From Eledone cirrhosa (taxonomy: Eukaryota), in the NCBI GenBank assembly GCA_964016885.1, contig OZ024745.1, positions 70,494,001 through 70,558,000 on the forward strand: a stretch of 64,000 bases of DNA, given 5' to 3'. Numbering within the stretch: position 1 is the stretch's first letter; every line of letters starts with the position of its first letter. This document shows positions 1,480 to 63,278 of the stretch, one piece after another. The notes beneath the pieces were generated by a model. That model did not search any database. It had not been told where the DNA came from and was given only the letters and a program-made list of their open reading frames with translations. Position numbers and translations under genes: made by a program.

Positions 1480-1533
1480 TATATATATTTCGGTGATGAA
1501 CATTATTCAGCAGCTATGACTTCATCAGACAGC
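1480..1533 (-). ncRNA. Hammerhead ribozyme truncated at or near the cleavage site
   Basis: Minus strand GCTGT-CTGATGA-AGT..ACC-GAAA-TATATATA runs straight into (TA)n. The 3' strand of stem I is absent. Confidence 0.7.
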
Positions 1534-1800
1534 TAGAACTTGAACAGAAACAACAGAAAAACATAATGATGGAATAAAGTTTATCTCTGTTATTTCGATC
1601 TTTTGATATGGCTATATCAATATCAAAAGATCGAGATAACAGAGGTAAACTTTAATCCATCATTATGTTTTTTTCTTTTGTTTAAGCTCAAGCTGTCTGA
1701 TGAGGTCATAGCTGTTAAATAATTGGTATCACCGAAATATATATAACAGCGAATATGTATAAACGAAGTTAATTGGTGTTTGGCTTACACTTCTTGTTAT
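1488..1800. mobile_element. Fold-back (inverted pseudo-LTR-like) element between two (TA)n tracts
   Basis: 1488-1609 is an imperfect reverse complement of 1620-1737. The right arm continues ~60 nt to the next TA tract. Each arm carries a hammerhead core. Confidence 0.85.
1692..1750 (+). ncRNA. Type I hammerhead ribozyme
   Basis: GCTGT-CTGATGA-GGT..ACC-GAAA-TATATA-TA-ACAGC: stem I GCTGT/ACAGC, canonical core, palindromic stem III, predicted cut after 1745. Confidence 0.88.
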
Positions 1801-3641
1801 ATATATATATATATATATATATATATATATATATATATATATATATATATATATATATATATATATATATATATCGTCTGTTAACACTACAAACACACAA
1901 CCGAGACTCCCTGATAACAGGACAACTTATTCGACTTTAATGAAACTACAGATACACACACACACACACACACACACACACACACACACACACACACACA
2001 CACACACACACACACACACACACACACATATATATATATATATATATATATATATATATATATATAATTTTGACTACCGAATTCCACTGACAAGCTATTT
2101 ATCCACCTGTCGCAACAGTAAAAAGTATATAAACATAGTTCCGCACTGTGGCACTCGACTCGCTCGGTCTTACGAAGTACGAACTCGAACTAGTTAACCA
2201 CCCGACTTAGGCTGTGCCTATTTTCTTAATTGTTGAAATTATTTGGACATTTCTATTTTGATGTAGAAAATTGAATAACGATCTAAAGTTCTCTTCATGC
2301 CTTCAATTATTTACAAATTTAATCAAGCGTTTAACGTTTCCCGTTTAAGGAATCTGAAGAAAGTGTTGAAAAATATCACTATGTGTGTAACATTTCGACT
2401 ATTCGTACATTAAATTTAACACGATAAACAAATACAAACAAACATGAAAGTGTGTGCATGTCATTTATTGATTTGTTTTTTTATAGAAATGCAATTTACA
2501 TAGTATCTTCATGTTATTAGTACGTGAGGAAATTACATTGAATCTAAACTTAAACCGTACATCTTTATCAACTAACATGATTGATCCTGACAGCTAATAC
2601 GTCATCAATGACGTCACGGCTTTCCAATCATTTTCAGGGGAGATTAATGCCAGCTTAAAATGTAGTTTTTTAAAGATATACTTGAAATCTATGATATCAG
2701 CTTTAAAAAGATGTCTATTGCACTGTTATTCTTTTCTTATTGTATACTCGGTAGTAAAATATTTATTGATAACTTTAAGTGTTTTAGAGGGAACGGTATA
2801 AGGGATGGTATTTGACATGTACGATTTTCAAAGGAAATTATCGAAATGGTGTTGCTTATCAATATCGCCCCTTCTCCGTTTAACAAATGTATTTCTTTAA
2901 TGGCCTTTATTTTGTTCTTATACGATCTGGTCTTCTACCAATTTGACCCAAACTCAAACAAGATACTTGTTTTTCGCACACTTGTCAGCTATAGTATCAC
3001 CAACGTCTCATAAAGTCCCGCAATAATCTCCAAACCTTCCTCCTCAAACATCATCCTATTGAAATACTCTACAACGACATTTTGTCGATTTGGGGAGTTG
3101 TTCAAGTATGACATCAAGACCATTCATCTCACAGAGTTTCTGCGATAATCGTAAACATATCCGGCGATCATCTAGGCTAAACAAGTACAAATGTTACATA
3201 TATATATATATATATATATATATATATATATATATATATATATATAGAGAGAGAGAGAGAGAGAGAGAGAGAGAGAGAGAAATAGATAGATAGGTAGATA
3301 GATAGAAATGTATATATATATATATATATATATATATATATATATATATATATATATATATATATATATATATATATATGTATATATATATATTTATTTA
3401 TATATATATATAAATATATATATACATATATGTATATATGCATATATATATATACATATATGTATATTTATATATATATATATATATATATATATATATA
3501 TATATATATATGCAAAGTTTTATTTAAATTGTTGGGTTACAACGAGTAAATATTTATAACTGATATAAAAGCACTCAACAAGTATTTGGAGTATATTTAC
3601 GATATTAAATAAATGGAAACTATATTTATAAAACCATATTT

Positions 3642-3705
3642 ATTTCATTATATATATTTCAGGGATATCATATTAAAAATATGGTATGCCTTCTTCAGAC
3701 AAAAT
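3642..3705 (-). ncRNA. Type I hammerhead ribozyme (inverted copy)
   Basis: Reverse complement of 3877-3940. Confidence 0.85.
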
Positions 3706-3876
3706 ACAATATAAACAGTCTTATAAATAGATAGATTTGACATATCTTACAACTTCAACTTCCATTTAAAAAGTTGATTTGGTAGTTGATTTGGTACTAC
3801 CAAATCAACTTTTTAAATGGAAGTTGAAGTTGTAAGGTATGTCAAATCTATCTATTTATAAGACTGTTTATATTGT

Positions 3877-3940
3877 ATTTTGTCTGAAGAAGGCATACCA
3901 TATTTTTAATATGATATCCCTGAAATATATATAATGAAAT
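3877..3940 (+). ncRNA. Type I hammerhead ribozyme
   Basis: ATTTTGT-CTGAAGA-AGG..CCT-GAAA-TATATA-TA-ATGAAAT, with a 7-bp stem I containing two G.U pairs. Confidence 0.85.
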
Positions 3941-5340
3941 AAATATGGTTTTATAAATATAGTTTCCATTTATTTAATATCGTATATATATATATATATA
4001 TTTGAGAGTGTATAAAGATGAAACTAGGGCGCTGTATAATAAATTGTAGTTTTCGTGGCAATGATTAGATAATATTGTACGTTAGGTATTAAGAAAGAAA
4101 GAAAGTTGGAAGGAAGAAACTGGAATTGAACTCACCAATAACGTTTCCACATGAGGGTAGTGATTGTTTTTCCCATTTATCTCTGGAATATTCCCAACAT
4201 AATGTAATTCTTATTCAACATTTCGCAACCGTCATACATATATATATATATATATATATATATATATATATATATATATATATATATATATATATATATA
4301 TATATATATATGTAACTATGTATATATATATATATGTATATATATATATATATATATATATATATATATATATATATATATATATATATATATAATATAT
4401 ATATATATATATATATATGTATATATATATATATATATATATATACGTATATATATACATAGTTACATATATATTTATGTATATATATATATATATATAT
4501 ATATATATATATATATATATATATATATGTATGTATATATATATGTATATATATATTTATATATATATATATATATATATATATATATATATATATATAT
4601 ATATATATATATATATATCTGTGTGTAAATATATATATATATATACATAAATAGATATAAATATATATGTAATTATGTATATATATATATGTGTATATAT
4701 ATATATATATATAAATATATATACATATATATATATAAATATATATATAAATATATATATATATACATATATATATATATGTATATATATATATATATAT
4801 ATATATATATATATACATATATATATGTATATACATATATATATATATATATATATGTATATATATATATATATATATGTGTGTGTGTGTCTGTCTGTGT
4901 GTTTGTGTGAGTGTGTGTAAAAAATTGTGATTCTCATGTGTATAGTTTTATGTTTGCGTCCCTTGGCCAAGTGTTAATCATAAATATTGGATTTGTTCCT
5001 TCTCTATTTGTGAATGCATCATATTGTATTGTATTCTAATCAAATCAGCATTTATAACCTTATTTATAAATTCACCAGGGTCTGGATAAAAGGACCCATT
5101 GTGAATATTATGAAATAGATTGATTAACTGATAAATAGAGTGGTGATGAAAAACAACTATGGTAGTTATAGGAATGCGTGTATGTGGGTTCAGGTAATTA
5201 GATATATAACAGAACTGACCACAAGTGTTATTAGGTTGGTCATATTAGTTAATAACACGATCGATATGTGATCAAATGTGATACAATTATATATATATAT
5301 ATATATATGTGTATGTGGGTGTATGCATATATATATATAT

Positions 5341-61135: not shown

Positions 61136-61363
61136 CCTGGAGTTGCAACCGATAGATAGTGTTAGCAATTGGAAAGACCAACGGAAACATTGTTCCCTCG
61201 GTCCGATTTGACGAAAGTCGATCGTTCCTTTTATATATGTCACAACTCACTACAACTTACCCTCTACTATTCTTTTCTCACTACAACATTCTCACCGTTT
61301 CCATCTCACCGCCACTGCTCACTATCATCTATCTTTCTATTGCTTCTTTAATTTTTCACTCTA

Positions 61364-61399
61364 TTTTCTTATGAAGGACTAGCGTCCGAAACGTTAAGA
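61364..61399 (+). ncRNA. Minimal PLE-type hammerhead with core mutation
   Basis: TTTT-CTTATGA-AGGAC-TAGC-GTCC-GAAA-CG-TT-AAGA, after a pyrimidine-rich tract and with a tail to TA. Confidence 0.6.
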
Positions 61400-61895
61400 C
61401 TCTTTTCCTACGATAAAAAGAATGAAAATAATATATTTATTTTGTGTACTGCTTTGTCATTTCCGTTTGCCTTTTGCATATATATATATATATATATATA
61501 TATATATATATAGAGAGAGAGAGAGAGAGAGAGAGAGAGAGAGAGAGAGAGAGAGAGAGAGAGAGAGAGAGGGGCGAGATGGAGAGAGGTGGACTGACAG
61601 ATAGATTGATAGATAGAAGGTTGTCTGATATATATTCCCATTCTACTAAATCTTCAACATAAAGTTGTAGTAGAAAACATTTTCCCATTGGTTGACAGTC
61701 CGTGGAAATGAACGCCATTCCAGTAGCCTGCAATGCGAACTCCTTAATCACACAAACATGCAAATATAATTTAACATTTATATGAAATCAGTTCTTCATT
61801 ATGAGATAACAATGAATGCCACAACCCTATCTCTCGTTACTGATGTTAACAAATCACCTAGACACAAGATAATTGTCGTTTTTTCTCTTCATTTC

Positions 61896-62190
61896 CATCA
61901 GTAGTAGTAGTAGTAGTAGTAGTAGTAACATCAGTAGTAGTAGTAGTAGAAGTAGTAGTAGTAGTAATAGAAAAAGTAGTAGTAGTAGTAAAAGTTGTAG
62001 TAGTAGCAGTAGTAGTAGTAGTAGTAGTAGTAGTAGTAACATCAGTAGTAGTACTAGTAGTAGAAGTAGTAGTAGTAGTAGAAAAAGTAGTAGTAGTAGT
62101 AAAAGTCGTAGTAGTAGCAGTAGTAGTAGTAGTAGTAGTAGTAGTAGTAGTAGTTATAGTAAAAAAAGTAGTAGTAGTAGAGTTAGTAGT
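61896..62190. repeat. (AGT)n microsatellite with ~110-bp higher-order duplication
   Basis: The interruption series CATC, AGA, AGAAAA, AAAAGT(T/C)GT, AGC occurs twice in the same order. Confidence 0.85.
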
Positions 62191-63073
62191 GAGGGGTTAG
62201 TGGTGCACATCTAACGTTACTAGTGCTGTGCCCTCAGTCGACGCTATTGATGCAGCTGTCAGATTTATTTGCTGCATATGTGCAACATGCGCATTGGCTG
62301 CAGTTAGTCAAGGTATTCTTGACTAAGATGTTGTTAGCTATATTTCTTTCAGGTAATACATCTTCATTATATATATCTCCCTATCTCTCCTCCTGCTACA
62401 CCTCCTCCCGTCTCTAGTTATCCCCCCCCCTCTTTCTTAATCACTACCTTTCACCATTTTTCTCGTATCTCACCTCCTCCTCCTTTAGATCTCAGTCTCT
62501 AAACACTTTCCCCCTCTTTTTTCTCTCACATATTCTCTCTGTCTTTACTCCTCTACTCTTCTAGCTCTATTTTCTAGGCTGCTCTTTCCTCCCTATGTAT
62601 ATATATATATATATATATATATACATAAATAAATAAATAAATAAATATATATATATATATATATATATATATAAATAAATAAATAAATATATATAGATAT
62701 ATATATATATATATATATTTATTTATTTATTTATATGTAAAAACATATATGTATATGTGTAGATACATATATGTATCTACACATATATATAAGTACAATA
62801 AATATATATTTATATATATAATATACATATATATATATATATAATATACATATATATATATATATATATATAATATACATATATATACATATATATATAC
62901 ACATATATATATACATATATATATATACATATATATATACACATATATATATACACATATATATATATACACATATATATATATATATACATATATATAT
63001 ATGTAGATACATATATGTATATATGTATATACATATATGTATATATGTAGATACATATATGTATCTACATATA

Positions 63074-63278
63074 TAGGAAAAAGTATGACCCCGACGGCAG
63101 AGCTCAAGCTGTTTCGACGGCTATTTCTGGACTATTTGAGTCCAGAAATAGCCGTCGAAACGGCTTGAGCTCTGCCGTCGAAGTCATACTTTTTCCTATT
63201 TCCCACTCTACTACCCTAAGTATTGAGTACTCTGGTGCGTTATGGTCCATCTGGTTCCTTACCACAATTCCTTTGTTA
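63074..63278. mobile_element. Family A fold-back mini-element
   Basis: Same family, centre ~63136 (CTGGACT-ATTTG-AGTCCAG). Confidence 0.85.

Follow-up and report, generated by a model that had tools for sequence, protein, structure and literature searches.

Introduction

Penelope-like elements (PLEs) that carry an endonuclease (EN+ PLEs) are known to leave inverted copies of their pseudo-long terminal repeat (pLTR) with a tail on one side only (PMC3846280; PMC8557442), and the targeting of (TA)n tracts by Hydra and Naiad elements has also been published (PMC8557442). Hammerhead ribozymes in opposite-strand pairs, and hammerheads with U3-A8 cores, are likewise on record (PMC4209133). How the inverted pLTRs and one-sided tails arise is named as an open problem in PMC8557442 (Craig 2021), which ascribes the tail to endonuclease resolution, and the only printed model found is antisense self-priming (Arkhipova 2013; PMC3846280). 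Here, a whole stretch of 64,000 nt from Eledone cirrhosa (G000:C5:70494001-70558000 within a 3.0-Gb assembly; hereafter the window) was analysed together with a random sample of the same genome. The window has 31.5% GC, is rich in (TA)n, (TG)n and short interspersed nuclear element (SINE)-like repeats, and contains fold-backs, i.e., inverted repeats with one short and one tailed arm fused to (TA)n. Each of the pLTR-only fold-backs (minis) probably consists of two short cDNAs made from the 5′ end of one PLE mRNA and joined head to head.

The closest described layout is that of EN+ PLEs, in which a 5′-truncated copy also stands head to head with its inverted partner, with a single tail, partial tandems and AT-rich or (TA)n targets (PMC3846280; PMC8557442). 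Here, however, some families consist mostly of minis whose two arms stop at a common base behind a TATA-like box, tails measure 25-144 nt rather than 30-40 nt, and the pairing of a short with a tailed arm is nearly strict. In vitro, Poseidon PAc of Anolis shows the same nicking and extension of both strands and the same two start sites bounding a tail near the start of the open reading frame (ORF), with ribozyme cleavage dispensable (Frangieh 2024; PMC11167929). Unlike in PAc, both start sites here carry TA microhomology and appear to be used one each.

PLE hammerheads (Cervera and De la Pena 2014; PMC4209133) share with those described here the type I form, a short palindromic helix III and the U3-A8 variant. 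Their opposite-strand pairs, 100-700 bp apart and ascribed to truncated PLEs, are like the present fold-backs; arm asymmetry, TA fusion and truncation within the ribozyme were not found in the accessible text of that paper. Non-LTR retrozymes are similarly non-coding, hammerhead-related and PLE-derived (bioRxiv 10.64898/2026.07.22.740005; PMC7229834), but they are tandem head-to-tail units with a complete hammerhead each, whereas the fold-backs are inverted pairs, often with an incomplete ribozyme; tandem units occur here only in a separate array. The symmetric terminal inverted repeats of miniature inverted-repeat transposable elements (MITEs) and foldback DNA transposons are not seen, one arm extending as a tail, and the arms differ further in being 3′ ends of an element that encodes a reverse transcriptase (RT). 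Repeat annotators could mistake the fold-backs for MITEs or microRNA precursors, and the accessible part of an octopus repeat annotation makes no mention of hammerheads (PMC13282606).

In the literature found, with subscription papers, Repbase notes and supplements outside its scope, there was no run-off at a pLTR start, extra G at PLE folds or strict pairing rule. Relative to that literature, the strictness of the pairing, the 5′ limit common to both arms behind a TATA-like box and the extra G appear to be new; the layout itself is known. The value of the locus lies in making an open mechanistic question testable, rather than in a new element class.

Genome-wide architecture of the fold-backs

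The random sample comprised 127 stretches of 10 kb (1.27 Mb) at round-number positions on large contigs, of which 1.16 Mb was scanned. In the window, local inverted repeats were detected by self-BLAST with microsatellites masked beforehand; in the sample, direct repeats served as the control. The asymmetric TA-fused type (tail cut-off 25-150 nt) made up 62 of 178 inverted repeats and 8 of 198 direct-repeat controls; the remaining inverted repeats were TA-fused at both ends (14), at one end only (19) or at neither (83). By chance, 1.3% of random unmasked positions abut such a TA tract. Arm ends are thus non-random with respect to TA, the test that the preliminary description of this DNA had set for itself, and the plan it proposed, a TA-fused inverted repeat with unequal arms, recurs throughout the sample. 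Its statement that the short arm usually stops at an internal TA also holds, given that in 41/62 cases (null ~9%) two or more bases of the long arm stay in TA phase beyond the point at which the short arm merges with the tract, a figure that agrees with its suggestion of TA targeting and of priming from both ends on TA microhomology. The extra tail is real as well; its range is wider than the ~30-100 nt proposed, at 25-144 nt inside the cut-off.

In most fold-backs of the window, one end abuts a (TA)n tract at 0-1 nt and the opposite end lies at a distance of 36-162 nt (Table 1). All those listed in the preliminary description were recovered by self-BLAST except 21075-21290, a decayed ~43-nt repeat visible by eye alone. 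The 62 sampled arms and 8 window arms fall into 33 clusters, and two 3′ ends are present in most multi-copy clusters. Extrapolating from 62 per 1.16 Mb scanned gives roughly 150,000 such insertions genome-wide, which makes the process a large source of hairpins and ribozyme motifs in this genome.

Raw Illumina reads from three further samples, and contigs from another one, were mapped to a family A locus. These contain (TA)n loose ends by the thousands at both 3′ ends of family A and strand-switching joints at its fold, so the fold-back structure is independent of this assembly. The palindromes therefore stand where the preliminary description had allowed for artefacts: the architecture is real and genome-wide.

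Family A as a Hydra-clade element

Judged by sequence, the family A arms correspond to the pLTR of a Hydra-clade PLE of ~3.1 kb that carries an ORF. At the 5′ end of full-length copies there is a pLTR in direct orientation, with its tail continuing into the leader and ORF; a direct pLTR stands upstream of the ORF at 10 of 15 loci, and inverted copies are also present. Single-ORF frames read by eye (L129-L142, L108-L114), which are interrupted by stops and frameshifts, hold a YRDDG RT core, a thumb, a Cys linker and a VIY..YIG endonuclease. The endonuclease is thus a C-terminal GIY-YIG domain following the RT. Pfam returned no significant match for the L129 frame. Protein motifs include SDKTGN, RLRWRTF and CNCPDRSTC, with one Cys between VIY and YIG, and CNLCSEE and LNKKDELVTACKH supply CxxC and CxH around E and N; CCHH is lacking. 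The pLTR contains a type I hammerhead with a UUGACAA core and a long helix II, and helices I-III fold as expected (L142).

Membership of the Hydra clade is assigned by motifs defined in PMC8557442, where the same DKT, RW motif, CxCX5C linker, absence of CCHH and CxxC/CxH are given, together with the same pLTR hammerhead and (TA)n insertion. Differences are the unit length (~3.1 kb versus generally <3 kb), RWR in place of RWK and the U3-A8 core. Naiad and Chlamys have an N-terminal endonuclease and no canonical hammerhead, unlike family A, which has a C-terminal endonuclease and a hammerhead. An assignment to Neptune was dropped once the Hydra motifs were tested.

A PLE ORF is also linked to the fold-back at 34518-36448 and to the L060/L170 family, while families B, C and D and the fold-backs listed from 1488, 30261, 34055 and 38360 are assigned to PLEs by layout and ribozyme only. 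Beside the Hydra-type sequences, a Neptune-like fragment at 28892-29860 (-) has a CX4CXXC linker and a CCHH-type GIY-YIG and ends at the TA tract at 29936; Pfam gave a GIY-YIG match below threshold for 28892-29593. The window thus holds more than one PLE clade. The earlier proposal that several PLE lineages lie behind the insertions is borne out by these two types of endonuclease fragment and by the 33 clusters among 70 arms.

Two 3′ ends and the pairing of arms

For family A, the predicted ribozyme cut serves as the origin of numbering. Copies have one of two 3′ termini, +20 or +97, both at a TAT fused to the target tract; 11 of 14 near full-length 3′ ends also lie at +20. With the tailed arm as query, 35 of 40 scored genome matches had an adjacent inverted partner, which was short in 35/35; with the tail only, 29 other loci were found, 25 of them minis, each with a short partner. 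Of 20 pairs in the random sample, 17 combined a long with a short arm, or 18 after correcting one greedy mispairing, in which the lone long plus long pair had been called beside a nearer short arm. Long and full-length insertions mostly follow the same rule (L108, L110, L129, L130, L134, L136, L139).

The junctions of the 25 tail-selected minis are distinct in 25/25 cases, and mini size is fixed by a sharp 5′ limit; both findings run against the earlier view that the insertions had shrunk to hairpins. For family A2, inherited junctions were rejected on the same count; elsewhere they are conceivable. Minority variants common to both arms numbered 35 over 28 pairs, compared with a mean of 6.1 (maximum 17) after re-pairing, which indicates that both arms come from one source or were converted. 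An RCTC..GAGY hairpin occurs 6-10 nt after the short end in 8/30 families (shuffles 0.17, maximum 3) and also follows +97 in family A.

Separately, four tandem family D arms with ~200-nt spacing, each TA-fused, were observed at G000:C9:42924898-42925521.

A shared 5′ limit, TATA-like box and extra G

Family A arms start 77 nt apart (lengths 60 versus 137 nt) yet stop together: 35 of 40 paired arm ends lie at -56 to -22, mostly at -47 to -30. The exact 25-mer starting at -40 has 26,181 genome matches, preceded by T in 16,029, by G in 5,050 and by A or C in 5,102. A non-template base thus stands at -41 in 10,152 exact matches, and eight further template bases are retained in only 4,402, a count that divergence lowers somewhat. 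Depth in the independent contigs steps ~11-fold at the limit base (run X1). A depth step near -40 in restriction-site-associated DNA sequencing (RAD-seq) was set aside, as a likely restriction end at L142:1055 confounds it.

Families C and D have their own 5′ pile-ups at other distances from the ribozyme: in A it falls within loop II on the downstream side of the core, in D 6 nt before the core and in C ~43 nt before it. A TATA-like box is found 29-31 nt upstream of the pile-up base in 8/8 long copies of these three families (background 1.2% per 4-nt window). The pile-ups of families B and E were left unused, since subfamily divergence and reference ends confound them. In the corresponding region, Penelope of D. 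virilis has a mapped promoter with initiator (Inr) and downstream promoter element (PMC2377424), and a rotifer pLTR carries a putative TATA box and an Inr-like motif (PMC3846280). The TATA-like box of family A doubles as the 5′ strand of ribozyme helix II (37749-37769; L142), so that promoter and ribozyme would overlap and the mRNA would start inside the ribozyme.

An additional G marks part of the junctions. Among the first 50 of 265 family D junctions, 36 show G on each arm at a position where the template reads C, and of 99 family D solo arms joined directly to (TA)n, 23 carry G where the template gives C and the target T. Among the first 50 of 2,729 family A junctions, one-base spacers are G:C in 9/10 where the template has A:T. 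Untemplated 5′ G has been read as a mark of cap copying in L1 (PMC9341517), and as a sign of the same process here it is suggestive only. Family C junctions (42/47 with G) were not counted as cap evidence, a TCT slip being sufficient to account for the G.

Hammerhead ribozymes

Type I hammerheads were sought with a custom descriptor that accepts both C3-G8 and U3-A8 cores; a stricter version overlooked the latter. U3-A8 cores had initially been taken for decay, a reading dropped given that they are a known hammerhead variant (PMC4209133). The first 570 kb contained 53 hammerheads compared with none in three shuffles, and the whole sample 98. Of these, 23 lie inside asymmetric arms or tails (1.9 expected; 2% of the sample), which confirms the enrichment in TA-flanked inverted repeats. 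Outward-pointing hammerheads had been described as part of the shared plan. This is correct for direction, with 23 complete hammerheads outward and 0 inward, and not for presence, as only 14 of the 62 sampled fold-backs contain a complete one. For the window, the descriptor lists eight motifs, six convincing, one chance-like and one with a doubtful helix I, and ~3 further hammerheads are visible by eye. The "about 20 motifs in 64 kb" of the preliminary description can be reached only by counting halves and decayed copies. No hammerhead was among the 150 of 205 Rfam matches listed for the window, in which only sub-threshold miRNA-like hairpins appeared.

The CUGANGA half is absent from all five family A fold-backs of the window. 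Because the 5′ limit lies inside loop II, these minis hold half a ribozyme and span the uncut site. The hammerhead in them is likely a passenger, without the 5′ half of the core, and the minis, having neither promoter nor ribozyme, are predicted to be dead ends. Ribozyme cleavage was also considered as the origin of the 5′ limit and rejected, as few arms end near the predicted cut.

A retrozyme-like array was seen at L086:486-3396 (G000:C11:15000001 onward), with seven units of ~482-490 nt in tandem, each bearing one type I hammerhead, followed 159 nt downstream by a TA tract. The same family occurs as fold-backs (L072, L096, L184) and as window fragments at ~20650-20870 and 60502-60760.

Proposed mechanism and alternatives

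An origin of the minis from two cDNAs, which we take to be the likely one, would proceed as follows. (i) The pLTR would act as a sense Pol II core promoter, with transcription starting at A(-40), (ii) the element protein would nick both strands of a (TA)n tract, (iii) one 3′ end would prime at +20 and the other at +97 of the same RNA, via 2-4 nt of TA microhomology, (iv) both cDNAs would run off the capped 5′ end of the mRNA, sometimes adding C opposite the cap, and (v) end joining would link the two cDNAs, with small losses or additions. The RCTC..GAGY hairpin may position the enzyme. Many long and full-length family A copies extend upstream of -40, so tandem or read-through templates must exist; long-armed and full-length insertions may arise from priming at the downstream pLTR of a tandem and from read-through transcripts, and the ribozyme may matter for such templates. 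For the double nicking, the two start sites and the dispensability of the ribozyme there is in vitro precedent in PAc (PMC11167929); we infer the promoter, the cap, the use of a single RNA and the joining from the family's sequences. The tens of thousands of natural products favour a sense capped mRNA, two priming sites and promoter run-off, all directly testable. The full form of the proposal, a two-headed integration in which both strands are primed at two fixed sites on one capped mRNA made from an LTR-like TATA promoter, leaving on the order of 100,000 dead-end hairpins, is put forward tentatively, at slightly below even chances. If true, each hairpin would preserve the transcription start, the cap and both priming sites of its family, and DNA alone would suffice to read the promoters and priming rules of dozens of PLE families.

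Several observations weigh against this proposal. The eight copies with a TATA-like box were hand-picked after the pile-up was known and represent only three families, and families B and E show no clear TATA. T stands at -41 in the 16,029 matches given above and many family A arms reach -41 to -47, so the start would need to be spread. In family A solo arms the cap signature is ambiguous, the bases being C 43, G 37, T 18 and A 2 (first 100 listed) next to 413 plain TA fusions, and many spacers (CAC, CAG) are explicable as slip re-copies of nearby sequence. The pairing rule is broken by two random-sample pairs that are short plus short or short plus medium and by one near full-length copy that is short at both ends (L141/L153); the arms of L044 belong to different subfamilies. 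Arm-to-arm conversion could be an alternative source of the shared variants. Finally, PAc primes without homology and without strand bias of the start site (PMC11167929), and hence predicts neither the pairing rule nor the microhomology.

The nearest alternative keeps the two cDNAs and explains the 5′ limit by a structural stop, either RT pausing at loop II or a joining hot spot at small palindromes. The family A limit does lie in loop II beside short palindromes, AAATTT junctions occur in 7/50, spacers often resemble slip products and many arms overrun -40 by 1-7 nt. We nevertheless regard such a stop as unlikely, because the distance from limit to ribozyme varies among families A, C and D, yet the TATA-like box keeps its spacing in all three, and the extra G is seen in the family D solo arms, which have no partner arm. 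An improbable explanation is that the second arm was copied from the first, by fold-back and self-priming of the cDNA or by self-priming on an antisense template, as PMC3846280 proposes for the head-to-head palindromes of rotifer Penelope elements. The minority variants common to both arms fit such copying, which leaves unexplained the stop at +20, where solo and full-length copies also have a free 3′ end (11/14 near full-length 3′ ends), and the varied bases inserted at the fold.

A further suggestion is that the minis form an independent non-autonomous family of "fold-back retrozymes", transcribed, self-cleaving and copied as a unit, a strong form of the reading in the preliminary description. 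Minis far exceed ORF-bearing copies (depth drops several hundred-fold beyond +100 in family A), some junctions recur (AAATTT 7/50, C-A/T-G 26/50, CAC/GTG) and the L086 array has tandem hammerheads. Against this, all 25 tail-selected junctions differ, the minis of family A span an uncut site and contain neither the TATA box nor the 5′ half of the core, a complete hammerhead is present in only 14 of the 62 sampled fold-backs, and the pairs of tailed and short arms are unlike the tandem monomers by which non-LTR retrozymes are defined (bioRxiv 10.64898/2026.07.22.740005). With its arms being the pLTR of an ORF-bearing element and the ribozyme of its minis incomplete, family A gives no ground for a distinct population, and we hold this idea to be very improbable. 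Chimeric fold-back reads could in principle create such structures, as palindromes beside long TA tracts are hard to assemble; the arms of single fold-backs differ by mutations (77-100% alike), the asymmetry is fixed, the flanks are unique and the reads of other samples show both TA-fused ends and the strand-switch joints, which reduces the likelihood of an artefact to almost nil.

Features of the window

The fold-backs and related copies of the window are collected in Table 1. In the fold-back at 1489-1800 the short arm ends within the TATATA loop of helix III, so its copy of the ribozyme lacks the 3′ strand of helix I. The long arm of 34519-36448 contains the C-terminal end of a Hydra-like endonuclease frame (34842-35120), and a relative of this fold-back in L051 has the consensus core.

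Table 1. Fold-backs, solo arms and fragments in the window (positions in nt; inverted repeats as detected by self-BLAST).
Feature	Position	Strand	Inverted repeat	Arms and tail	Ribozyme and other features
Fold-back	1489-1800		1489-1736	Short arm 1489-1612, long arm 1613-1736, tail to 1800	Complete type I hammerhead (+), core 1697, predicted cut after 1745
Family B fold-back	3511-3982		3600-3982	Tail 3511-3599, arms 3600-3982	Complete hammerhead per arm, outward, cuts near 3649 (-) and 3933 (+)
Family A mini	5344-5537		5424-5534	Tailed arm -, short arm +	Hammerhead 3′ half only
Family A mini	10491-10664		10497-10565	Older, more diverged	Half hammerhead
Family A mini	11870-12063		11942-12060		Half hammerhead
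Family D mini (absent from earlier list)	20006-20308			Arms 20107-20234, tail to ~20308; additional inverted piece 20006-20052	Cores 20158-20164 (-), 20177 (+)
Family A mini	20374-20565		20374-20485		Half hammerhead
Decayed fold-back	21075-21290			Arms ~21155-21196 / 21234-21276, roughly 75% alike by eye	U3-A8 core 21217-21223, weak helices
Fold-back	30265-31757		30265-31721	430-nt unique arms, 99.8% alike; microsatellite-rich centre; 36-nt tail	U3-A8 hammerhead per arm, cuts near 30374 (-) and 31612 (+)
Fold-back	34056-34288		34056-34173	59-nt short arm	No complete hammerhead recognisable; related to 29980-30165
Fold-back	34519-36448		34519-36373	367-nt arms, 77-nt tail	Cores CCGACGA
Solo family A tailed arm	36542-36681	-		Begins at shared 5′ limit	TA either side
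Solo family A copy, longer	37594-38058	-		Spans -373 to +97	Whole hammerhead region; U3-A8 core UUGACAA 37763-37769; GAAAC reads GAAAA; TATA-like box 37749-37755; inferred start A 37724
Fold-back	38200-39659		38360-39659	Arms 38360-39659, tail ~160 nt on left	U3-A8-type core, weak helix I, under descriptor threshold
Family A tail-only fragment	55580-55651	+			Between TA tracts
Family A mini	63073-63276		63073-63199	Tailed arm begins G+AGTCCAG at shared 5′ limit	Half hammerhead

An inverted repeat of different origin lies at 31820-33505, where two inverted SINE-like copies (31820-32065, 33260-33505) surround part of a PLE (32080-33220) that includes a hammerhead-like motif on the minus strand at 32203. 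An abundant family (43 matches) with the two-end layout, a 29-nt tail and the non-consensus core CAGAAGA is represented at 49380-49449 and 60938-61007 and in L126, L194, L211 and L221. A dispersed SINE-like family of ~180 nt, unrelated to the fold-backs, occurs at 5635-5817, 8953-9141, 11321-11511, 17310-17529 and 58730-59098.

Other elements in the sample

An 857-aa open frame was noticed in a non-LTR element at L112:2-2572, which we take to be CR1/L2-like. A 4.3-kb low-complexity tandem tract rich in ACA/AAT, open in two frames, occupies L114:1-4326.

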